Shown: in pieces, positions 9,809 through 56,419 of the stretch
Layout of the letters: every line of letters starts with the position of its first letter
Numbering within the stretch: position 1 is the stretch's first letter
From: an uncultured Verrucomicrobiota bacterium
GTDB lineage: Bacteria > Verrucomicrobiota > Kiritimatiellia > CAIQIC01 > Lenti-01
Length of the DNA: 64,000 nucleotides
Reading direction: 5' to 3'
Assembly: GCA_964647595.1 (NCBI GenBank)
Contig: CAZYGH010000010.1
Span: 20,362-84,361 of the forward strand
Made by a program: the position numbers and the translations under genes
Notes under the pieces: generated by a model
The model's input: only the letters and a program-made list of their open reading frames with translations
Told to the model about the DNA's origin: nothing
Databases searched by the model: none

Positions 9809-11752
9809 TCACAATTCTAGTTGGCGGTCGATCCATTCCATCCACCACGTCAAAACGCTTCGGACGAACAGCAGGAACTGTTGCCAGCGTGTGGGATGGG
9901 CGGGTCGCGGAGGAGTGGAGAACGGTTTGGGGTGCTCAAAGGTCTGTTGGACGGCGGATTCGCTGGCGGCCGGCAGCGTGAAATCCTTCGGGTTCATTGT
10001 GCAAAGGAAAGGTCCCGGCTTGTAGTTGCCGACGATTCGATACGCTCCAGGAGTGAGGTGGCCACTCCATGTGGCCGAACAGGAGAATCCTCATCCATAC
10101 TCGAACGAGCCGGAAGTGATTCGTTCCCCATCGGGTTTGATGATCCGATAGGTGGGCTCCTCGGGGCGGTTCGTGTCGCGCTTGGCCAACTTGTGCTGCG
10201 TATGGGTTCCAGAGATTCGGCGAAGATCGGTGATCTGCTCGTTGACTGAACCGATTAAATTAAAGGTGATCCTCAAGGCCCCTTTGGCGACGGCTTGCTG
10301 GAGAGACCAATCGGCAATGGAAATGACCGCTTGCAGGGGTTCACCGATGGGCAGCGAGACGGAGCCATTCAGGGGCACGGTGATGGGGGAGGAGTCGCCG
10401 CTTCCCGTTGCGCGGAGGAGCCATTCGTCGCCCCATCCATCGGTTTTGATTTGCTGATAATCCATCAGGCGATACGTGCCTGAAGGGACGTCGATTCGTT
10501 CGCCAGTCCGAACCATCATGATCCCTCCGGAATCCGTTGTGGACAGCAAGGTCATCGAGCGGATGGGGGAGGGCAGTTCCAGGGTCCCGAGATCGGTCTG
10601 CCAAGGGGTCAGCGTCATGTGCCCGGCCGGGATGTCGATCTGGACCTCGAAAAGGTGATCCCCAAGAGCGAGATAACGGCCCAGCATAAGTCCATCAGTT
10701 GAGGCAATGCGAGCGGATGCGGCGATAAAGAAGGAGTCACCCTGTGCGTTCAATCGTTGTTTCGAATAGGGTCTGTCTTTTTCGAGAAGGGCCATTTGGT
10801 CAAAGGAACCGTTGGCGGTGGAATCGCCCAGCGCGACGCGGTAGCCGATTCCATCCAGCGCCAGTTCTCCCAGATAGGAGCAATAGGGCATGGCGAGTAC
10901 GCGCATGTTTCGCACCACTTCGGAATCTTCCAAGTCGCCAGACGGTTGTTCCGAAATGTTTCCGTTGAGACGAAGGTTGAGGCAATACGGCATGCGGTGT
11001 CCCCCCACATCGATTTCCAGATCGATGGCAGGGAATGAACAGTCGAAATAGCTGCTTTGGGAGAAGGTTCTGGCCTTGCCATCTAGGGGTTCGTCGTCCG
11101 TCAAATCGTGATTTCCATTCCGGTCGAAGTAGGCGCGTTTGTAGAGGGAGGTGGCGGCGGGTGGCTGGTCGAAGGCTGCGAGAAATGTCGATTGGCCCAG
11201 CGTGATGACCGTAAACAGAGGACGAGAGCCTTCGAAGTCCGGCAATTTCCAGTCGCCCGCCGGAGGGATAGTTTGAAGCGGACAAAAGGCATACCCGACG
11301 GGTCGAGAGGAAGAGCCGTTTTCTGAGTATCGGTCGTAGAAAAGCGGAACTTCGATTCTTTGCTCGGTTGTGCTGGCGTGCTGTTGACGGGCACGAAAGG
11401 TGTCGAGATCGTCTGGAATGACAAGGATCGAACTCGACCGGCCCCGTTTCTTACGAGTTTCGCCGGAACTTTTCCAGTCGAGAAGCCACTTTTCCTCGAC
11501 CTTGAAATTGTAGGTATAGGTGCCGTCGTCCAAGGTCAACGTTTTGCGCCAGATGCCGTTCTCGTTGGACATCCGGGAAGAATCGGAGATTTTTTCGTGG
11601 TTGAACGAGCCCACCAAATCGACGCGATCCGCTTCGGGCATCACGATGGAAAAATCGACCTCGTGCGATGCGGCGATGGAGGAGAGTGACAGCGCGAGAA
11701 AACAGGCCAAGCCCCCCCGGACTTTCTGTTCCGTTTTCCGTTGCGCTTTCAT
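9809..11752 (-). CDS. candidate selenoprotein, paralog 2: signal peptide + CBM48/E-set-like N-domain + large domain ending FEYG-U(TGA 10091..10093)-GFSCSATW + 93-aa tail with a C-terminal hydrophobic helix
   Basis: ORF 10091..11788 (real start ATG at 11752, MKAQRK...) is in frame with ORF 9809..9997. The post-TGA peptide is conserved with paralog 3 at the amino-acid level, with synonymous differences. Confidence 0.6.
10056..10093 (-). promoter_or_regulatory. SECIS-like element: UGA + 14 nt + hairpin GGCCAC-AUGGA-GUGGCC
   Basis: Perfect 6-bp stem (plus-strand 10060..10076) with loop AUGGA at the same offset from the UGA as in paralog 1. Confidence 0.65.
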
Positions 11753-11797
11753 GAGGGGCAGGATGCTGGATGGAAGTGGAGGAGTCAAGTTGGCTTC

Positions 11798-13753
11798 CTA
11801 TGCAAGGAGTTGATCGATTCCCTTCACCAGACCTGCCAACAGCCAGCGAATGAAACACAGGAACCATTGCCAGAGGGTCCATTCGGCGGCGGGTGTCGTC
11901 GAGGGTAGGGTGGATGGAGTTTCGAATTCCTCGGCGTTTCCTATAGCCTTCGGAAGGATGAAATCATGCGGGGAAACCGTGCACGCAAAGGGACCCGCCG
12001 CATATTTGCATGCGATTCGGTATGGACCAGGGGTGAGGGGGCCACGCCATGTGGCCGAGCAGGTGAATCCTCATCCATACTCGAATGAGCCGGATGTGAT
12101 CAATTCCCCGTCGGGCTTAATGATTCGATAGGCGGGTTCCTTTGGACAGTTTGATTGGCGAACAGATGTTTCGTGCTGAGTGCGGGAGCCTGAAATACGC
12201 CGGAGGTCTGTAATGATTTCGTCTCGATGGCCGCGGAGCAAAAACGACATGCGTAGGGAACCGGCGGCCACCGCCCGTTCACGAGCAGAATCGGCGATTT
12301 TCACGAGGCTTTGCAGGGGTTCACCTACATCCAGATGGGCCGAGCCGTTGTTCGGAACGGCCACCGCAGGATTTTCGCCGCTTCCTGCCGCGCTGAGAAC
12401 CCACTGGTCTCCCCACGCGTCTTTCTTCAACAGGGAATACGTGAGCAGGCGCCATTCTCCGGACGGAACCGGGACTTTGTTCCCTGTGTCCACCATCATA
12501 AGACCTTTGCCCTTGGAGGAAATCAGGTTCATCGACTGCATGGAGTTGGGGAGTTCCAGAGTCCCCACATCACTTTCTCGAGGTTGCAAGAGGAGAGTGC
12601 CCCGTGGAAGGTCCAAATGAACATCAAAGAGATGATCGCCGACGATCAAGGAATTGCCAAAAAGAAGAGAATTTTTTCCCGAGAAATAGTTATTCCGGGT
12701 GATCAGGAAGGAATCGCCACGGGGATAGAGCCGTTGATTTGGCGTGTCTGCGCCTTCGGGGAGCTCGATGGTGTCTCCAAAGAGAGCATTGCCCGTGGCG
12801 TCGCCAAGCGCCACGCGATATCCAATGCCATCTAGCATAAACTCGCCCATGTAGGCGCAGGAGGGCATCGCGTAGAGAATCATGTTGCCCAGATTTCTCT
12901 CATCCGGCTGGTCTGACTCAGAAAAGGAGCCATTGAGGGTCAGGGTAAATCGATACGGTTGTACGCGGCCCTTTGCGGCCACTTGAATGTCGACGGGAGA
13001 AAAGGTGTAGTAAAAAGAACCCTCGCTAAAAGTGCGCTTGGAGTTGACCGCAATCGGTTCCTCATCGGTCAAGTCGCGATTTCCGTTTCGGTCAAAGTAA
13101 ATACGGTCATAGAAAGGCTCGTCTTCGTTTGTCTGATCCAGAATGGCTAGAAAGGTTGAACCACCCAGTTCGATAGGGCAATAGAGGGGTTCCGTTATGG
13201 TGAAGGCGGGAAACTTCCAATCGCCGCTGGGCGGCGTGGTGGCAAGAGGGTGATGTCCGTATCCCCCCGGACAATAGGCGGCGTTCTGCTCTGGAAAGGC
13301 CTGATAGAAAAGAGGAATTTCAATGCCTGCCTCGGTTTGGCGCGCTCGTTGAAAACGGGCGGAATATCCCGTCAGGTCTTCGGGGATGATCAAACGGGAA
13401 TGATAGATTCCATCCTCTTCTCTGATTAGCCGCAGACTTTTCCAGTCACTAAACGTATCCCGACCGGAATTTTCACCGCCCACCACCTTGAAGTAATAGT
13501 CAACGGTTCCTTCCTCCAAGGAGATTGTTTTTGTCCAGACGCCGTTTTCATTCTTCATCAGCGAATCGTCCGTCATTTCCCCATGATTGAAAGTGCCCAG
13601 AAGATAGACGCGTTCGGCATCGGGTAGGAGAATGGAGAAGTCGACATCCTGCGGGAGTGCGATGGAAGAGAGGACGGACGCGAGCAGGGCTCCGAGGCTC
13701 CAAAGAGCTTTCTGTTTCCGATGCAGATTCCAACTAGGTAGCGCCGCTTTCAC
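11798..13753 (-). CDS. candidate selenoprotein, paralog 3: signal peptide + CBM48/E-set-like N-domain + large domain ending FEYG-U(TGA 12071..12073)-GFTCSATW + 90-aa tail
   Basis: ORF 12071..13921. The probable start is the GTG at 13753, giving a signal peptide KAALPSWNLHRKQKALWSLGALLASVLSSIALP. The in-frame extension past the TGA to the TAG at 11798 was translated by hand and aligns with paralog 2. Confidence 0.55.
12038..12073 (-). promoter_or_regulatory. SECIS-like element: UGA + 14 nt + hairpin GGCCAC-AUGGC-GUGGCC
   Basis: Perfect 6-bp stem (plus-strand 12040..12056), same offset from the UGA. Confidence 0.6.
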
Positions 13754-13907
13754 GGGATGAAGAATGGAGCAAGGAGAGAATAGAGTCAAGATGGAGAAGA
13801 CCCCCCATAAACCGAATACCCCAACCCAAACGATGCCATCCGCATGGGGAAAGGAACGGGAGGCAGAGTCGGTTTCCGCGTGCGGAGCGCGTTCCACAGT
13901 GTGGAAA

Positions 13908-13939
13908 ACTTGAGCTATCACTTATAATTATAAGTGATA
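13908..13939. promoter_or_regulatory. perfect 32-bp palindrome GAGCTATCACTTATAA|TTATAAGTGATAGCTC in a divergent intergenic region
   Basis: Read directly from the sequence. Contains TATAAT-like hexamers on both strands. Lies between paralog 3 (minus) and the porin gene (plus). Confidence 0.5.
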
Positions 13940-20074: not shown

Positions 20075-20671
20075 GGGATGCTCCTGGGGTTTGGGTTTAA
20101 AACCCTTACCATGCCCGGATGCCGCAAAAATTCAAGTATAGGTTTTGATGCCCTCTCCTCATCCGTTGCTTGCCACGCCTCAGCGTGGGCACTCGCGCCC
20201 CATTTCCACCCCCCCATTTTTCCACACAATGGAAAACTTTTTCGCGATTTTTCCACACAATGGAAAAAATGTTTCCACAGTATGGAAAACTTTAGGCCGG
20301 CCCCATTCCCGTGGCTACTCTGTAGGCCCGGGCGCTGACCGGGCGGCTGTTTGATCGGGACGCCCCCGTCCCGCATCTGCCCCTTCTGAATCCTGAATCA
20401 TCGCGCCCTCCGCCCCCCCTTCTCCGCTTGCCAACCCACCCCATTTCCTCCATCCTCATCATCCTGTGAACATTGCACCGCCCAAAGAACATCATTTCAT
20501 AGGACTACCCCTTTTATGTTCATATTAATGCTTACTTTTCCCTAAACACCTTTAACAATTTTAGACATGCCCCCGACATTCCGCCTGCATTGACATAACG
20601 CCTCCATTGGCCATACCGTCAGTATCGCAGTATATTGCATGCCCACAGCACATTCACCGGTCTACTCATAA

Positions 20672-21223
20672 ATGCCAAAGATTAAGACAAAACTATGCCA
20701 AGGGTATCTAAAACAGCAGATATTCAAGCATCCGGCAGCGGATCGTGACGGATACGTCCTACAGCACAAACTTGTCATTGAAGATCATATCAAACAAATT
20801 TTGCCACCTGGGTGCATTGTCCATCACATTGATCAAGACAGAAAAAACAATTCAATCGACAATCTACTCTTGATTCCAAATGACTCCCTTCATATGCGGC
20901 TGCATCTTCTGAAACTGAGCAAGCCGTCTGATTACGATAAGTTGTTCATGTTTTTTCTGGAGATACAGAATGCAGTCACAACTGGGAGCATCGATCTACA
21001 GAAATATTACCGCGAAGAGAAAATCAAGGCGCAGGCTCGATATCGGTCCGTTTCAGCAATTCCGGAGCTGAGCGAGATCGCATGCGAGATCCTTGAAGGT
21101 CGGAGAATCGGCGTGCAAAGGCTACGAGAGCAGCACGGCGACGATGTGCTTAAGCAGATGATTCGCTCTGCGTTGTTACAAATGCCAATCGATGCTCAAG
21201 AGTATGCGTGGGAACTAATTTGA
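20672..21223 (+). CDS. HNH endonuclease
   Basis: GYVLQHKLVIEDH...CIVHHIDQDRKNNSIDNLLLIPNDSLHMRLH is an HNH_3-type motif. Low-GC codon usage. Confidence 0.7.
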   Translation: MPKIKTKLCQGYLKQQIFKHPAADRDGYVLQHKLVIEDHIKQILPPGCIVHHIDQDRKNNSIDNLLLIPNDSLHMRLHLLKLSKPSDYDKLFMFFLEIQNAVTTGSIDLQKYYREEKIKAQARYRSVSAIPELSEIACEILEGRRIGVQRLREQHGDDVLKQMIRSALLQMPIDAQEYAWELI

Positions 21224-21277
21224 TCACTTGGCGAAATACAATCGCACGGAAGTATCACATTCATTGCAAAATATTTA

Positions 21278-21607
21278 TTGGATAACTACCGATCTTTTCG
21301 ATCCGCCAATACTATTATCCAAGGAATGATAGCTATCTATAAGCTGTGTAAGCTGTCGCCAGATCACATGCTAGGGTGGGATGAAAAGCTACTAATGTGC
21401 AAGAACATGCTTTCAAAAAGTAAGACTGCTATTCATTGGACCATATGTCTTGCCAATACTGTCCAGCTAGACGAGGTGACCAAGCTAAACCTGTACTCTA
21501 GCATTGATAAAAACAAACTGTACTGGCGCTCAAAGATTGAAATGAAGAGGCTCTCAAAGCCTCCTTCTGCCGAAGAATTGCAGGTTATTTATGAAGATTC
21601 TCTCTAG
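21278..21607 (+). CDS. hypothetical protein (AT-rich island)
   Basis: ORF only; no recognisable family. Confidence 0.3.
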   Translation: MDNYRSFRSANTIIQGMIAIYKLCKLSPDHMLGWDEKLLMCKNMLSKSKTAIHWTICLANTVQLDEVTKLNLYSSIDKNKLYWRSKIEMKRLSKPPSAEELQVIYEDSL

Positions 21608-22069
21608 AATATGGATATCGGTCCAATAATCAAAAAAAGTGGGCAGTCCTATGAAATGATGTTTTGCTGCGCGGATCCGTTTCATCCCTTCCTCTTTTCG
21701 CCCATCCAATATGCCGCCCGCAAACGCGTTCCCCCACCCCGCCTCCTACTTTCTTCCCCAAATCCCCGCGCACTCTATCCCCAAAGAATAGAACTATCTT
21801 TTGACATTTTGGACACGCCCTGACTTCCCTCCCCACCTTGGCGCCCTTTGCGAGTTGCCACTCCGTTCACGCGGCTCTGCCATAGAACTCGCGTTCGCCC
21901 ATCGCCTTTAGCTTGGGCTCTGCACTCGTCTATTTGCGAGAGATGGTTTTTTAAATCTCAACAGGGGGAAAAACCCAATAGGTCGGAGTCCCCCCCTCCA
22001 TTTCCTCCTCCCCCGTCTCTTCGGTCTCTCACTCCGCGCCCTCTTCTCCCTACTGCCCGTGCCGGCCCC

Positions 22070-27295: not shown

Positions 27296-27470
27296 GAAGA
27301 ATGTTCACCACAGAGGGCACAGAGATTCACAGAGGAAAAATTCTCTGTGGAACTCTGTGTTCTCTGTGGTTCAAACGGCTGTTTGAAAGTTTTCCACAGT
27401 ATGGAAAAAATTTTCGCGATTTTTCCACACAATGGAAAAAATGTTTCCACACTGTGGAAAACTTTTTGGG
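27296..27470. repeat. composite intergenic repeat: CACAGAG inverted-repeat module + ~75-bp module of three TTTTCCACAnnnTGGAAAA palindromes
   Basis: Near-identical copy at 39205..39375 in the opposite orientation, plus partial copies at 20215..20290, 40003..40098, 48785..48815, 56335..56380 and 13885..13905. Confidence 0.7.
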
Positions 27471-39204: not shown

Positions 39205-39375
39205 ATTCACCACAGAGGGCACAGAGATTCACAGAGTAAAAATCTCGGTGGTCCTCTGTGTTCTCTGGGGTGAAAACGGCTGTTCAACAGTTTTCCACAG
39301 TGTGGAAACATTTCTTCCATTGTGTGGAAAAATCGCAAAAAAGTTTTCCATACTGTGGAAAAATATTAAATTATA
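39205..39375. repeat. composite intergenic repeat (second full copy, inverted orientation)
   Basis: See 27296..27470. Lies between trpG and trpD. Confidence 0.7.
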
Positions 39376-39392
39376 GGGCTGACCCCTATTCA

Positions 39393-39986
39393 TTATTCTG
39401 ACTCCTGAATTCTGGATTCTGAATTCTTCAAGAAATTCCGAAGGATGCGTTTGCCGACGGGGGTCATGATGGATTCGGGGTGGAATTGGATGCCTTCGAG
39501 GGCGAATTGTTTGTGGCGGATGCCCATGATTTCGCCGTCCTCCGTGGTGGCGGATACTTCAAGGCACTCAGGCAGGCTTTCGCGTTCGATGGCGAGAGAA
39601 TGGTAGCGCATGGCTTTGAAGGGGCGGCTATCGAGGCCCTTGAAAACGCCTTTGCCATCGCAGGTGATGTCGGACGTTTTGCCGTGCATAAGTTTTTTGG
39701 CGTGGATGACTTTTCCTCCGTAGGCGAGACCCATGGCTTGGTGGCCGAGGCAAACGCCGAGGAGGGGAATTTTTCCGGCGAAGGTGCGGATGACTTCGCA
39801 CGAAACGCCAGCATCTTCGGGCCGTCCGGGGCCGGGAGAAATCACAATGGCGGTGGGGGCAAGTTTCTCGATTTCGGCGATGGAAATGGCGTCGTTGCGG
39901 AATACCTGCACATCGGCGGCCATCTCGCGCAGATATTGCACAAGATTGTAGGTGAAGGAATCGTAGTTATCGATCATCAAAATCAT
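39393..39986 (-). CDS. trpG: anthranilate synthase component II (glutamine amidotransferase)
   Basis: Class-I GATase triad (GVCLGHQ, …HPES). Start at MILMIDNYDSFTYN. Confidence 0.9.
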   Translation of the reverse strand: MILMIDNYDSFTYNLVQYLREMAADVQVFRNDAISIAEIEKLAPTAIVISPGPGRPEDAGVSCEVIRTFAGKIPLLGVCLGHQAMGLAYGGKVIHAKKLMHGKTSDITCDGKGVFKGLDSRPFKAMRYHSLAIERESLPECLEVSATTEDGEIMGIRHKQFALEGIQFHPESIMTPVGKRILRNFLKNSESRIQESE

Positions 39987-40002
39987 GGGATTCTCCGGGA
40001 AG

Positions 40003-40098
40003 GTAGAGTTTCTCTCACAGAGAGGCACAGAGATTCACGGAGAAAACGGAATCGCTTCTCTGTGGGACTCTGTGAACCTCTGTGAGAGGAAGGGCTGT
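40003..40098. repeat. partial copy of the CACAGAG inverted-repeat module
   Basis: ctcacagagaggcacagagattcac...ctctgtgggactctgtgaacctctgtgagagg, between trpE and trpG. Confidence 0.6.
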
Positions 40099-41676
40099 TC
40101 ATGGCTGTTTAGATTCGGCTTGTTGGGCGGTTTGGAGAAGTTCGAGGGCGCGGGACATTGCGGCGGCCTTGTTTTGAGTCTCGCGTAGTTCATATTCAGG
40201 ATCGGAATCGGCGACGATGCCGGCTCCGGCGCGGATGGTGAGCCTTCCGTGTTCGGCCACAGCGGTGCGGATGCAGATGCAAAAATCCATATTGCCGTCG
40301 AAGGAGACATAGCCGACGGCACCGCCGTAGGGTCCGCGCGGCTCGTCTTCGAGGTCGGCAATGATTTCCATGGCGCGAATTTTGGGCGCACCGCTCAACG
40401 TGCCGGCGGGGAAGGAGGATGCAAACAGGTCGAACGCATCATGGCCGGGTTCCAAATCGGCGGTGATGTTGGAGACGAGGTGCATGACGTGGGAGTAGCG
40501 TTCGACAATCATCAGGTCCGTGACTTGCACGGTGCCGGGAAGGGCGACGCGTCCGAGCTCGTTGCGGCCCAGATCGACCAGCATCAGATGTTCGGCGCGT
40601 TCTTTTTCGTCTTGCAGGAGGCTATCGGCGTTTTTGCGATCTTCCTGTTCGGTGTCGCCGCGCGGGCGGGTGCCGGCGATGGGTCGCAGGGTGGCGGTTC
40701 GAGAATCGAGCCGGATCATGGTCTCGGGTGAGGAGCCAATGAGTGTGCAACCCTGCGCCTTCAGGAAAAACAGATAGGGCGAAGGGTTCACATGTCGTTG
40801 GGCGCGGTACAAGCTGACCAAGTCGTCGGGGGCGGGGCCGACAAAACTTTGGGAGATCACGCATTGAATGATGTCGCCCTCAAAAATGTGGTCCTTCACT
40901 TTTTTGACCATTCCCTTGAAATACTCCGGCGGACGCACGGGCAAGGGCTTGCGAATGGGCGTTTTGCCGGTGACCGAGCCCGCCGGAATGGGCTTGGCCA
41001 GCGTATTCAGCAAATCCTGTACGCGGGCGGTGGCCGCCTCAAAGAGCGCATCGGCCTCTCCATCTTCCTTGAAGGCCAGCGCCAGCGCGGTCAGCGTATG
41101 CGTGACATTGTCGAAGATGAGGAGCGTGTCCGGGATGACAAATTCGGCCATGGGGCGTTCGGGCGGGAGCTTGTTGGGAACGCGCGATTCAAAAAAATGA
41201 ATCATTTCGTAAGAAAAATAGCCCACCAAGCCGCCGCAAAAGCGGGGGAGTCCGGGCAGATGAGCCAACGAATACGGTTTCATGATATTGCGCAACACGG
41301 CCAGCGGATCACCCTTGTGGGGGATTCGCTTTTCGTCGATGCCTTGGCGGATGACCACATCGTTGCGATAAACCGTGATCATGGATCGAGCCGAGACGCC
41401 CATGAAACTATAGCGGCCCCAGCGCTCGCCGCCTTCCGCACTTTCGAGCAGAAACAGGTGGGGATGGTGGGGGGCAAAGCGGGCGAGGACGGAGACGGGC
41501 GTCTCGGTATCGGCCAGAATGCGCGCGCCCACAGGCACCACGGTGGCGGTGTGGAGCAAGGATTGAAATTCCTCGCGAGAGGGGAACGTTTCGAGCAACA
41601 TGGGATTTCCTGGGTTCATGAATAATCTTTTGCCGTTGTTTCTGTATATAGAAACATACCTTTTCCTAGTTGTCAA
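40099..41676 (-). CDS. trpE: anthranilate synthase component I
   Basis: Chorismate-binding enzyme motifs (GAVGYVSFDGNMDFCICIRT…). The start may be one of the internal Mets (MNPGNP… or MLLETF…). Confidence 0.9.
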   Translation of the reverse strand: MTTRKRYVSIYRNNGKRLFMNPGNPMLLETFPSREEFQSLLHTATVVPVGARILADTETPVSVLARFAPHHPHLFLLESAEGGERWGRYSFMGVSARSMITVYRNDVVIRQGIDEKRIPHKGDPLAVLRNIMKPYSLAHLPGLPRFCGGLVGYFSYEMIHFFESRVPNKLPPERPMAEFVIPDTLLIFDNVTHTLTALALAFKEDGEADALFEAATARVQDLLNTLAKPIPAGSVTGKTPIRKPLPVRPPEYFKGMVKKVKDHIFEGDIIQCVISQSFVGPAPDDLVSLYRAQRHVNPSPYLFFLKAQGCTLIGSSPETMIRLDSRTATLRPIAGTRPRGDTEQEDRKNADSLLQDEKERAEHLMLVDLGRNELGRVALPGTVQVTDLMIVERYSHVMHLVSNITADLEPGHDAFDLFASSFPAGTLSGAPKIRAMEIIADLEDEPRGPYGGAVGYVSFDGNMDFCICIRTAVAEHGRLTIRAGAGIVADSDPEYELRETQNKAAAMSRALELLQTAQQAESKQP

Positions 41677-43972
41677 GCGGCGGTCACAAAAATTGAATAA
41701 AACAGATCGGTCGTGAAAATATCGAAGGTAAATTCAATGGAATAGAACGGGTTCAATTGACGATGAAGAGACTGAACACGAATGGAGAGCTTGCATGAAG
41801 ATATCTTGATAGAATACGGTCTGAAAGATAATGCAATAACCTGAGCAATACGAAAAGAGAGCGACAGATTGTGAATATGCCATTGACCTTTAAGTATATC
41901 CTCATTGGACTGTTTTGTTTAAGCAACGATTTCAACAGTATTTGCTTCGCACAGAACATCAAGCCCAGCGCGCTACAGTTGGCAGAGGACGCGTATAACA
42001 AAACCGTTGAAAATGCATTAACTGATTTGGATAGACGGTATTGGGAGGCAAATACTGAATGTCAGCAATCTGAAAACGATGTCCTTAAAGAAATCGGTAA
42101 TCTCCGAGAGATTGGCAAACAGGTGGCAAAGGAGACAGATGAGTTGCAACGATCTCAACTGTGTATTGTGTGGGCGGATGCCATGGAAAAAACAACTGCC
42201 AGTGTTGTTCAATATTTAAAGGCGGTTGAATTGTTGTGGGCAACAATCGAAGCAAAGAGCGTTATTGAGCCGATGAAAAACGTTCCTGAAAAAGCCATTT
42301 ATCCGCACACTGAATATGTCCAATGCCCTCAAGAAATCATACAATTTAAAGAAGGATTGTACGAGGAAATGAAGGGCATTTTAAATGAGCGCCGGGTGAG
42401 TGATGAAAGCTGGGCATGGGGACGTATTGAAGATTTCGTGCTAGATTTAACGGCTTTGACGGGAAAGAGAATCGATGTTCACGCGCTAAAACGAGAAATG
42501 CGATTTAGTTTTCAGTGGGACGAAAAACGGCTTCAAGATTCTAATGAACTGAATAATCGAATTCTCGCTATAAAGCGCGAAAAAAACCGAGCAATGAAGG
42601 AAAATGGGATCAGTGAAGATCGATGGTATAAATACAAACTTACTGAACTAGAGCAACGACAGAAAGCACTGGTTAATGGATATTTCGACTCGCAAGCTAT
42701 AATGACCCATCTTTATAATTATTACAATTCAAGTGTTGTGGATAAAGATAATCAAATTTTTGCCGCAAATGTGTCGAAACACAGCGCACTTCGTGTTGAA
42801 TATGAGGCCACCATTAAAACGGTTGCCGAGCGAGTTCTCGCAGCGAAAAAATTGGAGGAAAACACGGAAAGAGAAAAAGGAAATCAATTCGACCCAAAAG
42901 AAAAATCCCAAGTAATTGTAGAAGTGAGTGGGGAACCTCAAGACGGCAATAAAGGATATCCATTATCATCCCCTCGAAAAGGAATCATGGGATCTTCGGA
43001 ATTGCCAAACTACGAAAAGCTACACCCATATTTGATCGTTGATTTGAGTGGAGGGACCGGCGTGAGCAAATTCCCAATTCGCTTTTCGGAAAAAGGACCC
43101 GATTTGAATGACGAGCATTGCAAAACCACAGAACTTTGGATGAGGTATATCCCAAGTGGAACCTTTCTCATGGGTGCTCCTTCGGAAGAAATCGGGCATA
43201 AAAAGCATGACAACGAGCCAGAGCATCCGGTGACGATCACCACGGGTTTCTACGCAGGTATTTTTGAGGTGACTCAAAAGCAGTGGGAGAATGTAATGGG
43301 CGAAAATCCGTCCCGTGCAAAAGGAGATGTGAGGCCAGTTGACAACGTTAGTTATGACATGATTCGAGGGAATGCAGTTGGGAATGGGTGGCCCACTTCT
43401 CGAGCTGTGGATGAAGGGTCTTTCATGGGAGTATTGCGGTTAAAGACGGGTTTGTGTTTAGACCTTCCAACGGAGGCAGAATGGGAGTACGCCTGCCGCG
43501 CAGGTACAACAACGTCATTGAATAGTGGAAAAAATCTGACAAGTGAAGAAGAGTGTCCAAATTTGGCAGAGGTTGGGCGGTATAATGGCAATGAAAAAGA
43601 TGGGAAGGGTGGATTTTCGTCCAAACATACGCGAGTTGGGTCGTATCTTCCCAATGCTTGGGGTTTATATGACATGCACGGGAATATTCAGGAATGGTGT
43701 TTAGATTGGCAAGGGCGGTTATCAGACGTTGCGGTTACGAATCCGATGGGTCCACCAAATGGAGACCTCAGGGTAAGCCGTGGAGGAGGTTGGAGTACGG
43801 GAATAGCACGCGGGTGTCGTTCGGCGACACGATATTGTGGCTATTCTCCACAACATGCAGCTGGAATGACAGGCTTGCGAGTGGCTCTTGTTGTGGGTGC
43901 TTCAAATAGGTGAAGAGTAGTGAGTGGATTTACAATGCTAAGTGCGATTCCGATTCCTAGTTGTCAAGCGGC
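41673..43972. mobile_element. AT-rich genomic island flanked by 20-bp direct repeats TTCCTAGTTGTCAAGCGGCG (41673..41692 and 43953..43972)
   Basis: Exact direct repeats read from the sequence, bracketing a low-GC segment with a single foreign-looking gene, inserted between trpE and thrS. Confidence 0.5.
41871..43913 (+). CDS. secreted protein with an N-terminal coiled-coil-rich region and a C-terminal formylglycine-generating-enzyme (FGE/SUMF1)-family domain
   Basis: Signal peptide; the C-terminal 280 aa carry FGE-sulfatase signatures (RYIPSGTFLMGAP, EAEWEYACRAGTTT, GLYDMHGNIQEWC, RVSRGGGWS, GLRVAL). GC is far below that of the flanks. Confidence 0.7.
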   Translation: MNMPLTFKYILIGLFCLSNDFNSICFAQNIKPSALQLAEDAYNKTVENALTDLDRRYWEANTECQQSENDVLKEIGNLREIGKQVAKETDELQRSQLCIVWADAMEKTTASVVQYLKAVELLWATIEAKSVIEPMKNVPEKAIYPHTEYVQCPQEIIQFKEGLYEEMKGILNERRVSDESWAWGRIEDFVLDLTALTGKRIDVHALKREMRFSFQWDEKRLQDSNELNNRILAIKREKNRAMKENGISEDRWYKYKLTELEQRQKALVNGYFDSQAIMTHLYNYYNSSVVDKDNQIFAANVSKHSALRVEYEATIKTVAERVLAAKKLEENTEREKGNQFDPKEKSQVIVEVSGEPQDGNKGYPLSSPRKGIMGSSELPNYEKLHPYLIVDLSGGTGVSKFPIRFSEKGPDLNDEHCKTTELWMRYIPSGTFLMGAPSEEIGHKKHDNEPEHPVTITTGFYAGIFEVTQKQWENVMGENPSRAKGDVRPVDNVSYDMIRGNAVGNGWPTSRAVDEGSFMGVLRLKTGLCLDLPTEAEWEYACRAGTTTSLNSGKNLTSEEECPNLAEVGRYNGNEKDGKGGFSSKHTRVGSYLPNAWGLYDMHGNIQEWCLDWQGRLSDVAVTNPMGPPNGDLRVSRGGGWSTGIARGCRSATRYCGYSPQHAAGMTGLRVALVVGASNR

Positions 43973-44254
43973 GCTCCCAAAAAGTTTTCCACCGTGTGGA
44001 GGCTCTTGCAAAACGACGTTTCGCAAGAGCAGTAGTCAGGAGCGAGTAGCCAGTCGTCAGCATGAATAGCCACCGAACTTTCTTTACGTAGCTCATGGCC
44101 AAATTCTGACTACTGAATCCTGACTCCTGACTACTCTCTTGCAACAACTCCGTCAGGAGTTTTGCAAGAGGTTCCATTGTGTGGGTGGTGCATTGACTTT
44201 GCGGGGGTGAAAGGGTAGGTTTTTGCGCCTTAGGAAGGATTCCATATAAATTTC

Positions 44255-45991
44255 ATGAAGCCTGATTCTGTTGGTTTGGAGACGATGCGCCATAGTGCGG
44301 CGCATGTGATGGCGGCGGCGGTTCGTCGCTTGTGGCCGGATGCGTTGTTCGACATTGGTCCGGACACGGAGGACGGTTTTTACTACGATTTCGACCTGAA
44401 GCATCGGCTGACGGTGGAAGACTTCCCGGCCATTGAGGCCGAAATGGCCAAGATTGTGGCCGAAAAAGCGCCGTTTGTGCGCGAGGAGAAAACCCGCGCC
44501 GAAGTGATGGAGCTGATGTCCCAGCGGGGACAGAAATACAAGTTGGAGCGCTTGGCGGATATTCCAGAGGGCGAGACGATTAGCTTGTATCATTGCGGCG
44601 ATTTCACGGATTTGTGCCGCGGTCCGCACGTCGCAAATACGGGCGAGGTGAAGGCATTCAAGATTCAGTCGGTGGCGGGTGCGTATTTCCGCGGCGACGA
44701 AAAGAATCAGATGATGCAGCGGTTGTATGGAACGGCGTTTTTGACGCAGGCCGATCTGGATGCGTATTTGAAGATGTTGGAAGAGGCGAAGTTGCGCGAC
44801 CACCGCGTGCTGGGGCGCGATTTGGATTTGTTTAGCATTCAAGAAAGTGTGGGTCCCGGGCTGGTGCATTGGCATCCCAAGGGCGCACGCATTCGCTCGA
44901 TCATCGAAGAATTCTGGCGCAAAGAACATTATCGCGCGGGCTACGAAATGCTGTACACGCCGCACATTGGGCGGGCGGGGCTGTGGGAGACGTCGGGGCA
45001 TCTGGGGTTCTATAGCGAGAACATGTATGCGCCGATGGAAATCGACGAGCAGCGCTATTACATCAAGCCGATGAATTGCCCGTTCCACATTCAGATTTAT
45101 AAGAGCCGCAAGCGGTCGTATCGCGAGTTGTCGCTGCGCTGGGCCGAGCTGGGCACGGTGTACCGCTATGAGCGGGCGGGCGTGTTGCATGGGCTGATGC
45201 GCGTGCGCGGGTTTACGCAGGATGATGCACACATTTATTGCACCGAAGAGCAGGTGGAGAGCGAAGTGCGCGAATGCGTGCGGTTCGCCATTGCCATGTG
45301 GCGTGCATTTGGCTTTGAGGACATTGTGGCGTATTTGGCCACGCGTCCCGAAAAATCCGTGGGCGATCCGGCGCGTTGGGATTTGGCGCAACGGTCGCTC
45401 GAAGCCGCGCTGAAGGCCGAGGGCATTTCCTACGAAATGGACGAGGGCGGCGGCGCGTTCTATGGCCCCAAGATCGATTTGAAGACGCGCGATGCCATTG
45501 GTCGCGAGTGGCAGATGAGCACCGTGCAGTTCGACTTCAATTTGCCCGACCGTTTCGACATGGTCTACACGGGCGCGGACGGTCAGGAGCATCGACCGTA
45601 CATGGTGCATCGTGCGTTGTTGGGCAGTTTGGAGCGTTTCTTTGGCATTCTGATTGAGCAATACGCGGGCGCGTTCCCGTTGTGGCTTGCCCCGGTGCAG
45701 ATCAGTCTGATTCCGGTGACGGACAAGCAGATTGCTGCGGCCAAAGAAATTGCCGCGAAGCTGAAAGAAAAAGATTTCCGTGTGTTGCTGGACGATCGGC
45801 CCGAAAAAATGGGCGCAAAGATCCGCGATGCGCAGATGCAGAAGATTCCCTACATGCTCATTTTGGGCGGACGGGAATTGGAAAACGGAACCGTTTCGGT
45901 CCGCAGCCGGGTGGCTGGGGATCTGGGAGTCATGACCCTGGAGGCCTTCATCGCCAAGGTGGATGCCGAGCGGCAAGTGACGCTGAAATAG
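44255..45991 (+). CDS. thrS: threonine--tRNA ligase (lacks the N-terminal TGS domain)
   Basis: Class II aaRS motifs and editing/catalytic/anticodon-binding domains. HXXXH…C zinc site. Confidence 0.9.
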   Translation: MKPDSVGLETMRHSAAHVMAAAVRRLWPDALFDIGPDTEDGFYYDFDLKHRLTVEDFPAIEAEMAKIVAEKAPFVREEKTRAEVMELMSQRGQKYKLERLADIPEGETISLYHCGDFTDLCRGPHVANTGEVKAFKIQSVAGAYFRGDEKNQMMQRLYGTAFLTQADLDAYLKMLEEAKLRDHRVLGRDLDLFSIQESVGPGLVHWHPKGARIRSIIEEFWRKEHYRAGYEMLYTPHIGRAGLWETSGHLGFYSENMYAPMEIDEQRYYIKPMNCPFHIQIYKSRKRSYRELSLRWAELGTVYRYERAGVLHGLMRVRGFTQDDAHIYCTEEQVESEVRECVRFAIAMWRAFGFEDIVAYLATRPEKSVGDPARWDLAQRSLEAALKAEGISYEMDEGGGAFYGPKIDLKTRDAIGREWQMSTVQFDFNLPDRFDMVYTGADGQEHRPYMVHRALLGSLERFFGILIEQYAGAFPLWLAPVQISLIPVTDKQIAAAKEIAAKLKEKDFRVLLDDRPEKMGAKIRDAQMQKIPYMLILGGRELENGTVSVRSRVAGDLGVMTLEAFIAKVDAERQVTLK

Positions 45992-47508: not shown

Positions 47509-48294
47509 ATGAAAATACCCATTTATCAGGTGGATGCGTTTGCGTCGGAGGTGTTCGCGGGGAATCCGGCGGCGATTTGTTTGCTGGAGTCGTGGTTGGA
47601 GGATCGCGTGTTGCAGGCGATTGCGGCGGAAAATAATTTGTCGGAAACGGCGTTTTTGGTCGGGAATGGGGAAGGGTTTGAGTTGCGGTGGTTCACGCCG
47701 GCGTCGGAGGTGACGTTGTGTGGGCACGCGACGCTGGCGGCAGCGAAGGTGTTGTTTGATTTGCGAGGATGGAGCGGGGCGCAGATTCGGTTTCAGACGA
47801 AGTGGCGGGGTGTATTGACGGTGGAGAAGTGCGGGGAGCTGTTGGAGATGGATTTTCCGGCGCTTCCGGCGAAGCCGGTGGAGACGCCGAAGGGTTTAGC
47901 GGATGCGTTGGGGGTGGAGCCGCGGCAGGTGCTGGAGTCGGCAGAAGATTGGTTGATTGTATTGGACGATGAGGCGGCGGTGCGAGCGCTGAAGCCGAAT
48001 TTTCTAGCGCTGGAAACAATGCCGTGTCGCTGTGCGGTGCCCACGGCGCGGGGAGAGAAGTCGGATTTTGTGTCGCGGGCCTTTGCGCCACGGCTGGGGA
48101 TTTTGGAGGATCCGGTGACGGGTTCATCGCATTGTGTGTTGACGCCGTATTGGGCGGGGGTGTTGGGGAAAGACGCGCTGCACGCGTTTCAAGTTTCGGC
48201 GCGCGGGGGAGAGGTGTTTTGCCGCCATGCGGGAGATCGGGTGAAGTTGGCGGGGCGTGCGGCGGTGTATCTGGAAGGGATGATTTATGTGTGA
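47509..48294 (+). CDS. PhzF-family phenazine-biosynthesis-like isomerase
   Basis: MKIPIYQVDAFASEVFAGNPAAICLL… with a conserved catalytic Glu (SETAFL). Confidence 0.8.
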   Translation: MKIPIYQVDAFASEVFAGNPAAICLLESWLEDRVLQAIAAENNLSETAFLVGNGEGFELRWFTPASEVTLCGHATLAAAKVLFDLRGWSGAQIRFQTKWRGVLTVEKCGELLEMDFPALPAKPVETPKGLADALGVEPRQVLESAEDWLIVLDDEAAVRALKPNFLALETMPCRCAVPTARGEKSDFVSRAFAPRLGILEDPVTGSSHCVLTPYWAGVLGKDALHAFQVSARGGEVFCRHAGDRVKLAGRAAVYLEGMIYV

Positions 48295-48891: not shown

Positions 48892-50805
48892 TTAGATTTT
48901 GTAGGCGATGACTTGGGCGGGGCGGAGGGTGGGGGGGAGGGGTTGTCCGCTGATTAGATCGGTGGTGGCGGAGGAATGGGGCAGGGTGAGGGGTTGCGAG
49001 TTGTGCATGTCGCTATTGCCGAGAATGGCGAATCCTTTTTTGGATCCGGGCTTTTGCCGGATATATCCGGTGATGGCGCGGTTGGATGTTTCCAGCGGGA
49101 TGATGGTGCCGGGGGAAGGATCGCTGAAGAGTTCCGGGTGCTTCGCACGGAGGGCGTGCACGCGGCGCAGGTCGGCGACGAGCGTGTGCTCGCGGGTCCA
49201 GCCCATGGCGGCGGCGCTGAAGAGGGGCAACACGGAGGGGGGCAACTGGGCGACTTCTTCGTTGGTGAAGTCGAAGCCGGTGTTGACGGGGACGGGTTCG
49301 GCGAGCTCGATGCCATTGTGGAGGTAGGGAACACCGGGGAGGAAGGCGCCGATGGCTTGTGCATAGAGGGCGTAGGCGGGGCCACCGGCCCAATGCACGG
49401 CGCGCGGGGTGTTGTGATTTTCGGCCATGGCCATGAAGGGCACGGGCAGGCCTGCGCCGTGGATCCAGCTGAGCCAGCCGCGGAAGTTTTCGGGGTTTCG
49501 CACGGTTTGCATGAAGGGGCCGACGCAGACGTTGTAGCCTTCTTCGCGGGCGGCGGGGCTGAGGTTGAATTCCTCGGCCCAGAGGGCGAAATCGGGGTCG
49601 ACTTGGCGGGCGCGCGCGACGAGTTGCCGCTTGAGGTCGCCGGGGAGGGCGTGACCCATGTCAATCATGACGCCATCCACATGATAATGCGTTTGGTAGT
49701 GGGGGATGACCTCGGTGATTTTGTTCCAGAGCGGCTGCACGACATTTTCGGGGCGCGCGAGCTGGGAGGCATACATGCGAACGGTGTTGTAGCCGATGTA
49801 ATTGAAATCGGGGTGATCGTAGAGGCGCAGATAGGTGACATCGGTCCAGGGCGGTTGCTCGGAGTCCGGGCCCCAGTCGCAGAACGCGCCGGGAATGCGA
49901 ACGGAAACAGGCTGACCGTTGCGGGGGTCGGGGGCGGTTCCGCGCCAGCACCCATTTTCCATGTGAATGGTGTCAGGGGAGGGTGGCGCGGTGAACATGT
50001 CGAGATAGGTTTTGTGAGGCGGTAGCAATTCATGGAAGCGACCGTTGCCGACGGCGTCGTAGATGTTTTTGAGCTCGTCAGGAGTGAAGAGCGGGGCGCC
50101 GTAGGTGTCTTCGGATTTTTCCCCATTTTTGCGGTCGGGAACGCTGGCGCGAATCCAGTAGAACCACTCGGGGTGCTCCTTGGCCCAGGCGGCATCCTTG
50201 GCGGCGGTGCGGAAAACAAATTCAACGATGACGCGAATGCCGAGGCGGTGCGCGGCTTGGACAAAGGCGGCAAACTCGGTTTCGACATCAAGACCTAGGG
50301 CGGGTTCGGCAAGATGTTCATCGAGCGCATACGGATCGCGGATGGCGAAGGCGCTGCCCATATCTCCCTTGTTGCCGTCTTGTCCGATGGAGGTGATGGG
50401 GAGCAGATGGATGGTGTTGCAGCCGAGCGAGCGAATGAACGGCAACATCGTGATGGCCTTGAGGAAGGTGCCGGTTTCGCGCCATCCCGAGGCGAGAGGC
50501 TTGCAGGAAATGGAGCCATTGCCATCGTGATCGAAGGCGGCGCCGTAGCGGACGAGAAGATTATAGGCAATGGCGTTTTTGCCCCAGTCGCCGGGCATGC
50601 CACCATCCACCACTCGCTTCTGCGGACGGGTGGAGAGGATGGCGCGGAGGCTGTCGCAGAAAAATTGTTCCGGAACGACGGATTGCGCGGCGACGGGGCC
50701 GTCGGGGTTGAGCCAAAGTCCGGGGATGAGATGGGGTGAGGAAGGGGAACTCGACAGGCGTTTTTCGAGTTGGGCGAGGACGGTTTTGAGGGGATTTGAA
50801 TTCAT
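48892..50805 (-). CDS. glycoside hydrolase family 13 (alpha-amylase superfamily) protein
   Basis: TIM-barrel GH13 signatures (GIRVIVEFVFRT, HVDGVMIDMGHALP, WAEEF). Confidence 0.65.
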   Translation of the reverse strand: MNSNPLKTVLAQLEKRLSSSPSSPHLIPGLWLNPDGPVAAQSVVPEQFFCDSLRAILSTRPQKRVVDGGMPGDWGKNAIAYNLLVRYGAAFDHDGNGSISCKPLASGWRETGTFLKAITMLPFIRSLGCNTIHLLPITSIGQDGNKGDMGSAFAIRDPYALDEHLAEPALGLDVETEFAAFVQAAHRLGIRVIVEFVFRTAAKDAAWAKEHPEWFYWIRASVPDRKNGEKSEDTYGAPLFTPDELKNIYDAVGNGRFHELLPPHKTYLDMFTAPPSPDTIHMENGCWRGTAPDPRNGQPVSVRIPGAFCDWGPDSEQPPWTDVTYLRLYDHPDFNYIGYNTVRMYASQLARPENVVQPLWNKITEVIPHYQTHYHVDGVMIDMGHALPGDLKRQLVARARQVDPDFALWAEEFNLSPAAREEGYNVCVGPFMQTVRNPENFRGWLSWIHGAGLPVPFMAMAENHNTPRAVHWAGGPAYALYAQAIGAFLPGVPYLHNGIELAEPVPVNTGFDFTNEEVAQLPPSVLPLFSAAAMGWTREHTLVADLRRVHALRAKHPELFSDPSPGTIIPLETSNRAITGYIRQKPGSKKGFAILGNSDMHNSQPLTLPHSSATTDLISGQPLPPTLRPAQVIAYKI

Positions 50806-56328: not shown

Positions 56329-56419
56329 GTGAGGAAGTTTTCCACACTGTGGAAAACTTTTTTCCACAGTGTGGAAAACCGGGGAAAAAGGCATGAGCCG
56401 CCGCAGAGCGCGGAGGGGG

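Follow-up and report, generated by a model that had tools for sequence, protein, structure and literature searches.

A low-GC, single-gene insertion between trpE and thrS of an uncultured Kiritimatiellia bacterium is bounded by two copies of a putative host promoter segment

In a 64-kb stretch of contig CAZYGH010000010.1 (assembly GCA_964647595.1; the whole stretch is called the window here), which comes from an uncultured bacterium of the class Kiritimatiellia, the divergent trp and thrS operons are separated by a low-GC segment that carries a single gene and is flanked by direct repeats. The segment is compositionally foreign, horizontally inserted and lineage-specific, and we assign a probability of roughly 0.55 to the reading that its insertion was accompanied by a target duplication of a segment of the host promoter. 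The features on which this reading rests are the following:

trpE: 40099-41601, minus strand; first gene of the trpE-trpG-trpD-trpC-trpF operon and left flank of the insertion site.
Left direct repeat: 41663-41692, no strand assigned; exact core 41663-41682, at the putative native position of the trp-operon promoter, with a -35-like TTGACA (minus strand, 41671-41676) and the T-run upstream of it.
Inserted low-GC DNA: 41693-43953, plus strand; about 2.26 kb, or 2,271 bp if counted from 41683; GC content 0.44.
Island gene: 41877-43913, plus strand; 678 residues, of which 1-26 are signal-peptide-like, 30-330 predicted helical, 330-380 a low-confidence linker and 385-675 a confidently predicted formylglycine-generating enzyme (FGE)-sulfatase fold (SUMF1-like, C-type-lectin-like).
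Right direct repeat: 43954-43983, no strand assigned; exact core 43954-43973; second copy of the putative host promoter segment.
thrS: 44255-45991, plus strand; first gene of thrS-infC-rpmI-rplT and right flank of the insertion site.

Composition and Boundaries of the Inserted Segment

The GC content between the repeats is 0.39-0.49 as compared to 0.55-0.62 outside, and positions 42001-43000 form the lowest-GC 1-kb bin of the window. The two halves of the island gene have a GC content at third codon positions (GC3) of 0.40 and 0.43, versus 0.71 in trpE and 0.73 in thrS. A first reading of the letters alone (the original prediction) had named trpE and thrS as the flanking genes, as is the case, and had placed the GC content of the segment well below theirs, which is borne out by both GC and GC3.

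The exact 20-mer TTCCTAGTTGTCAAGCGGCG occurs at 41663-41682 and 43954-43973 and nowhere else in the window, even when up to three mismatches are allowed; within the window it is not a common repeat. A match to it was found in 0 of 100 dinucleotide-preserving shuffles, and a chance repeat was rejected. The original prediction had two copies of the 20-mer bracketing the segment, which agrees with our results, except that it had set the first copy 10 bases too high (41673 for 41663) and the second one base too low (43953 for 43954). The similarity of the copies runs on to 30 nt (41663-41692 and 43954-43983), of which 28/30 are identical (E 1.9e-6 in a blastn comparison within the window), and gapless extension gives a repeat of 37 nt at 86%. 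Among the exact repeats of at least 14 nt in the window, TTCCTAGTTGTCAAGCGGCG is the only one that both reaches 20 nt and encloses a low-GC segment. The left copy runs on into a host palindrome and trpE, while the right copy, which starts 40 nt past the stop codon of the island gene, directly abuts a repetitive extragenic palindrome (REP)-like element and is contiguous with host DNA of this kind.

The Empty Site in Relatives and the Identity of the Repeat

Relatives were collected by a TrpE scan of one genome per GTDB species, which returned many metagenome-assembled genomes (MAGs) of Kiritimatiellia, 'Verrucomicrobiota' and Lentisphaerae, and a TrpE scan of metagenome contigs of the Joint Genome Institute (JGI; metagenome_contigs collection) added more, none of them above 92% identity. 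Loci were taken as syntenic if their TrpE was 84-95% identical to that of the window and the contig reached far enough, which left 19. In all of them trpE and thrS are directly adjacent and divergent, with a gap of 199-544 bp (969 bp in locus L018), and an FGE-like gene lies between the two in none (0/19). The motif homologous to the repeat, with one TTGACA core, is single-copy in these relatives. The empty site that the original prediction had proposed to look for in related strains is thus present, with trpE beside thrS and one copy of the motif, and orthologs at the same locus in all relatives, the outcome that would have spoken for a resident gene, were not seen. Together with the composition, the empty site supports the view taken there that the segment is an inserted island.

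The repeat itself could be placed within the host sequence. In all syntenic relatives, the trpE-side spacer contains the palindrome GTTTCTGCATATAGAAAC, followed after about 12-15 nt by (T)TGTCAAG, and in an alignment of 13 relatives GTCAAG is invariant, as is its spacing from the palindrome. The motif is separated from the trpE ATG by 55-62 nt in the closest relatives, as compared to 61 nt in the window. On the trpE strand, TTGACA is found 17 nt upstream of TTCTAT (minus strand, 41648-41653), the latter inside the palindrome. Judged by conservation and by agreement with the promoter consensus, the left repeat copy is the putative -35-like box of the trp operon in its native place. Two further elements of the intergenic region are relevant here:

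Palindrome GTTTCTGTATATAGAAAC: 41638-41655, no strand assigned; between the putative trp -35 box and trpE, overlapping the putative -10 region; kept in all relatives.
thrS promoter-like element TTGACT-17 nt-TAGGTT: 44193-44221, plus strand; conserved in the intergenic sequences of all relatives and untouched by the insertion.

The latter is the putative promoter of thrS. Between the conserved trpE-side and thrS-side ends, the spacer is hypervariable among the relatives. The 20-mer agrees with the homologous sequence at only 13 of 20 positions in the closest relative, L005 (TrpE 95% identical), and at 15 of 20 in L087 (92%), and appears as a fast-evolving, lineage-specific piece of the putative host trp promoter. 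Both repeat copies are this lineage's version of the sequence, including the A/T run that follows the 20-mer; as the closest relatives match at only 13-15 of 20 positions, both copies therefore derive from this lineage's own sequence.

Several observations on the same intergenic region were made alongside. The palindrome at 41638-41655 is near-invariant, as GTTTCTG(C/T)ATATAGAAAC, at the homologous position in L005-L023, L087, L091-L094 and L162, and may act as operator for the trp operon of this Kiritimatiellia clade. A conserved in-frame ATG is found 7 codons upstream of the called trpE start (41602-41622, minus strand; ATGAACCCAGGAAATCCCATG), and TrpE may start earlier than called, or the conservation of the upstream ATG may reflect the ribosome-binding site AGGAAA. 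In L018 (6032-7000; TrpE 88%), the trpE-thrS spacer holds an independent insert, about 700 bp long, that carries an unrelated open reading frame (ORF) of 154 residues. This insert has no flanking direct repeats, its ORF belongs to no Pfam or PHROG family, and it adjoins a perfect 24-nt hairpin. It seems that small inserts have landed repeatedly in the trpE-thrS spacer. In L053 (3797-4780; TrpE 71%; a MAG of about 65-70% GC), an unrelated single-domain FGE-like gene of 327 residues is found on the trpE strand, about 480 bp upstream of that gene. FGE-like genes were found within the flanks of 3 of the roughly 160 loci fetched, and this neighborhood is probably a coincidence because such genes are numerous in the class.

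How the Segment May Have Been Inserted

We propose that a foreign, low-GC fragment of about 2.26 kb with one gene would have entered the variable spacer between the divergent trp and thrS-infC-rpmI-rplT operons, immediately upstream of the trp promoter, in one Kiritimatiellia lineage. About 30 bp of the host promoter, with the -35 TTGACA box and the T-run next to it, would have been duplicated in this event, of which 20 bp are still perfect. Staggered cleavage about 20-30 bp apart followed by fill-in could have led to such a target duplication, and the agent may have been a recombinase or transposase acting in trans, or the repair of a break in which foreign DNA was captured. The two substitutions in the 30-nt repeat would have arisen since the duplication. 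As a consequence, the trp operon would keep an intact promoter, whereas the copy at the far end would probably be inert; the retention of a complete promoter by the trp operon is therefore probably the reason why the insertion survived. Target duplications of comparable length are made in bacteria by elements of the IS1202 group (16-28 bp; PMC10132070).

Several points weigh against this proposal. Target duplications of 20-30 bp are rare, and their known makers carry terminal inverted repeats and a transposase, both of which are absent here: local alignment of the island ends gave scores of 7-8 as compared to a shuffle mean of 7-8, that is, chance level, and no transposase or recombinase domain was found in the single gene of the island. 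Neither was an integrase or transposase found in the island or, by Pfam labels and scans, among the window genes examined (ORFs below 250 residues at 25-34 kb and 56-64 kb being partly covered), in line with the original prediction that no integrase is present. Moreover, both mismatches of the repeat lie together in the 10 nt beside the perfect 20-bp core, as a crossover in the longest block of identity would leave them. Given two changes in 30 nt, however, both would fall in the terminal 10 with a probability of about 0.11, which is still compatible with later substitution. The window covers only 64 kb of the genome, and a recombinase or further repeat copies may lie elsewhere. There is no second insertion of the same element by which its true ends could be defined, and the fold and the missing residues are the only basis for the function proposed for the protein.

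It is possible, though rather unlikely, that the repeats arose instead from a single crossover with a circular DNA that bore a near-identical, att-like segment of about 30 bp. Such a crossover, site-specific or by short homology (Campbell-type), would have left attL and attR, the integrase acting in trans or having been lost. Direct repeats that flank the insert and relatives with a single-copy empty site would be expected in this case too, as would a perfect core with similar but mismatched arms, such as the 28/30 identity over the extended repeat, and cis-mobilizable elements (CIMEs) with attL and attR but no integration genes are a described class (PMC5704250). The nature of the core argues against it: it is fast-evolving and lineage-specific, agreeing at 13-15 of 20 positions in relatives whose TrpE is 92-95% identical, so that the foreign element would have to carry a copy of a lineage-specific promoter, whereas the usual targets of known integrases are conserved sequences. 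Reading of the core revealed no inverted-repeat architecture for recombinase binding, and neither the island nor the window genes checked encode an integrase. An 18-mer of the repeat had no match in viral_contigs and the 20-mer had none in metagenome_contigs, the latter being a weak negative since the scan missed even the window's own contig; these ends are not known from any other element. The original prediction had read the repeats either as attL/attR, created by site-specific integration, or as a target-site duplication, and had offered decay of the island or an integrase in trans to account for the missing integrase. The fact that the repeat is putative host promoter sequence matched at 13-15 of 20 positions in relatives favors target duplication over a conserved att core, and the att reading is possible but not favored. 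If an excised, attP-like circle exists, its junction would read ...GCGATTCCGA-20mer-GTCACAAAAATTG.

A broader version of the trans-acting scheme, to which we give a low probability, is that the islet was left behind by a non-autonomous insertion mechanism of Kiritimatiellia that is as yet undescribed. In it, an enzyme supplied in trans would cut about 30 bp apart and so duplicate the target, perhaps with a preference for the stretch just upstream of promoters in which REP-like hairpins are located, and would deliver single ORFan genes without terminal inverted repeats. The islet with an HNH endonuclease gene at about 20.4-21.9 kb of the window might then be another product, or even the agent.

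The second repeat copy might also be a functional regulatory duplication, serving as promoter or operator of the island gene or of thrS rather than being a scar of insertion. We consider this improbable, even though the repeat is a putative promoter element and its left copy, read on the plus strand, offers TTGTCA-17 nt-TTGAAT, a weak resemblance to a promoter directed at the island gene. For the right copy, neither reading nor a scan showed a -10-like partner at the proper distance on either strand, and, taken on the minus strand, this copy faces into the 3' end of the gene. In the relatives, anything from about 70 to about 800 nt separates the motif from the thrS promoter-like element, and the motif is therefore not a thrS element.

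That the gene is ancestral at this locus and was lost from every sampled relative is very improbable and was rejected. Direct repeats of 20 bp can mediate precise deletion, but loss would be needed in 19 of 19 syntenic loci spanning 84-95% TrpE identity. Furthermore, a GC3 of 0.40-0.43 against 0.71-0.73 is incompatible with long residence, and the N-terminal half of the protein has no homologue anywhere.

Finally, the 20 nt of the exact repeat correspond to k-1 at k=21, and the window stems from a metagenome assembly, so that a de Bruijn assembler might have spliced in a low-GC circular or unrelated sequence sharing the 20-mer. This origin is equally improbable and was rejected, as three assemblies agree, one of them at k=31. 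A Logan contig from SRR7760390 is identical to 39322-44149 of the window and runs uninterrupted over both junctions; Logan assemblies are built with k=31, and the 20-bp repeat therefore cannot have made a false join there. The JGI contig Ga0207193_1000728 shows the same island with both repeats, and it differs from the window by single-nucleotide polymorphisms (SNPs) at about 48.2-49.5 kb and is therefore a separate assembly. The island protein is encoded on all three contigs on record with this exact TrpE (3/3).

The Encoded Protein and Its Likely Function

The segment holds one ORF (41877-43913, with an alternative GTG start at 41871), which is intact and lies in DNA of 42-49% GC; the suggestion in the original prediction that the island might be decayed found no positive sign in its favor. 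A candidate promoter element lies upstream of the gene:

Candidate extended -10 element TGATAGAAT: 41807-41815, plus strand; within the island and about 60 nt ahead of the gene; read from the sequence and not listed by the consensus scan.

This element may be the island gene's own promoter. The N-terminus of the protein, MPLTFKYILIGLFCLSNDFNSICFA/QN, resembles a Sec signal peptide, which suggests that the protein is exported. Residues from about 30 to 330 are predicted as long helices with low confidence in the AlphaFold2 model. An exhaustive HMMER search with residues 1-398 against 1.84 billion cluster representatives returned only the self-match, and no homologue of the N-terminal half was found in viral contigs; by these searches the helical N-terminal half is an ORFan. 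The C-terminal part is assigned to Pfam PF03781 (FGE-sulfatase) at residues 424-670 (E 8e-35), with predicted local distance difference test values of 80-97 in most 10-residue blocks of 385-675. The single encoded protein that the original prediction had described, with an N-terminal coiled coil and a C-terminal FGE-family domain, is consistent with this domain assignment and with the all-helical, low-confidence model of the N-terminus.

Identities of 43-57% link the C-terminal domain to domains of multi-domain proteins in MAGs of the Planctomycetes-Verrucomicrobia-Chlamydiae (PVC) group, namely of Kiritimatiellia, Victivallales and unclassified gut bacteria. The inserted DNA had no match in plasmids, phages or viral contigs, searches with the island DNA or protein in plasmids and phages gave only distant matches to FGE domains at 36-38% identity, and in PHROGs only the FGE-like domain was matched, to a family labeled 'kinase'. 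The top Foldseek matches were Treponema denticola TvpA (2Y3C) and Pseudomonas aeruginosa PvdO (5HHA), with E values of 4e-17 and 2e-16, respectively, and template modeling scores of 0.70-0.77 on the target. These two were also the best sequence matches in the PDB, and human FGE came next, with a Foldseek E value of 2e-13. NCBIfam scores for PvdO, GldK and EgtB were far below the equivalog cut-offs.

The island protein shares the PF03781 domain and the overall fold with SUMF1/FGE. However, Cys336 and Cys341 of FGE (human numbering, CxxxxC), the Cu(I) ligands on which catalysis depends, are both missing from it: in phmmer alignments to the C336S and C341S mutant chains, Cys336 is replaced by Thr and Cys341 by a gap or Gly, the query reading GGGWSTGIARGCRSATR. 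The consensus of its homologues, RGGGWxxxAxxCRSAxR, likewise has no cysteine pair. With both catalytic cysteines absent, binding rather than sulfatase maturation is the probable role of the protein. By analogy to PvdO, TvpA or PorK, it is probably a ligand-binding or structural protein of the envelope. The original prediction of a secreted, 'sulfatase-maturase-like' FGE-domain protein thus stands as far as fold and Pfam domain are concerned, whereas the maturase activity it implied is not supported.

The non-catalytic proteins with FGE/C-type-lectin fold, TvpA, PvdO and PorK/GldK, resemble the island protein in the C-terminal fold, in the lack of the FGE cysteine pair and in being exported or envelope-associated; the island protein differs in the fusion to a unique helical region of about 300-330 residues. 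T. denticola TvpA (variable protein 1) is the variable target protein of a diversity-generating retroelement (DGR). For the island gene, no DGR template repeat, that is, no second copy of any part of the gene, was found in the 64-kb window (blastn, word size 7), and no reverse transcriptase was seen among the window genes examined.

Comparison With Known Mobile and Acquired Elements

The segment resembles horizontally acquired genomic islets in its low GC and GC3, its single cargo gene, its absence from syntenic relatives and its position between two conserved housekeeping operons. It differs from them in its unusually long flanks, a 20-30 bp duplication of putative host promoter sequence, and in having no tRNA target, mobility gene or identifiable donor. 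As an islet it is a known kind of thing and fairly ordinary; the unusual detail is the 20-30 bp promoter duplication in place of a tRNA att site or a short transposon footprint.

CIMEs are attL/attR-flanked, cis-mobilizable remnants of integrative elements that have lost the integrase (PMC5704250). Common to them and the segment described here are direct repeats at the ends, the lack of recombination and transfer genes, and a one-copy empty site in relatives. In contrast to CIMEs, the repeat is a lineage-specific putative promoter and not the end of a conserved gene, and there is no adjacent integrative element or integrase and no decayed mobility gene; no other element that shares the core was found in the contig collections searched.

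The IS1202 group comprises 1.5-kb insertion sequences with terminal inverted repeats of 24-26 bp (TGT...ACA ends) and a DDE transposase of 440-460 residues (PMC10132070). The length of the duplication observed here (20 bp perfect, 30 bp at 28/30) would be within or just above the 16-28 bp of this group, depending on its true extent, whereas terminal inverted repeats and a transposase are lacking and the cargo is an unrelated secreted protein.

REP-Like Repeats and Other Features of the Window

On its right side the insertion borders on the following feature:

Structured spacer of nested inverted repeats: 43984-44190, no strand assigned; REP-like units TTCCACCGTGTGGAG (43987) and TTCCATTGTGTGGG (44172); RNA fold z = -5.4.

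This spacer belongs to a repeat family dispersed through the genome and its relatives and is therefore host DNA and not part of the island; judged by its predicted fold, it may terminate transcription of the island gene. The 15-bp palindromes TTCCAC-N3-GTGGAA of this family occur at 13892, 20220-20290, 27392-27460, 39293-39360, 43987, 44172 and 56340-56376 of the window, as well as at L005:7186-7239 and in many relatives. Usually two or three stand in tandem, with spacings of 22 and 31 nt, in intercistronic gaps including trpG-trpD and trpB-trpA, and the trpG-trpD cluster has a syntenic counterpart in relatives whose TrpE is 80-95% identical. The palindromes are REP-like elements or binding sites, which might be tied to trp regulation or mRNA processing. 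Both ends of the Logan contig, at 44149 and 39322, fall inside REP-like repeats.

A second low-GC patch (0.47-0.49 per kb) is located at 20400-21900, just right of three REP-like palindromes (20216-20293). It encodes an HNH endonuclease (20672-21223; Pfam HNH_3 and several PHROG HNH families) and a 109-residue ORFan (21278-21607). A C-rich, imperfect direct repeat of 26 nt (20435 and 21992, 77%) brackets this patch and may be due to chance. An exact 21-nt direct repeat (10085-10105 and 12065-12085) lies at the 3' ends of the adjacent minus-strand ORFs 10091-11788 and 12071-13921, which belong to no Pfam family and are probably tandem paralogues that share a C-terminus.

In the comparison with the JGI contig, 16 SNPs fall within about 100 bp (48176-48282) and scattered SNPs continue up to 49456, the rest of the 18 kb compared being identical. 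The cluster is strain-level variation or a recombination tract in a PhzF-like gene (47509-48294), and the scattered SNPs extend into an amylase-like gene (48892-50805). The remaining genes of the window are housekeeping genes, namely trpA, trpB, and those for DAHP synthase, prs, L25, dnaB and tRNA-Gln. A search of 41400-44400 against Rfam gave no match, and neither did PADLOC.

Implications

For PVC bacteria, the absence of the cysteine pair from the protein described here means that matches to Pfam 'FGE-sulfatase' should be checked for these residues before a sulfatase maturase is called. With regard to mobile DNA, the locus provides a worked case in which the direct repeats that flank an island need not be att sites, and it would open a new question only if ORFan cargo flanked by promoter duplications of 20-30 bp were to turn up at further loci. 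Taken together, the segment represents a clean and well-bounded recent gene gain in an uncultured bacterium of the PVC group, with the empty site documented in many relatives and with junctions at which the host promoter appears to have been duplicated and not disrupted.

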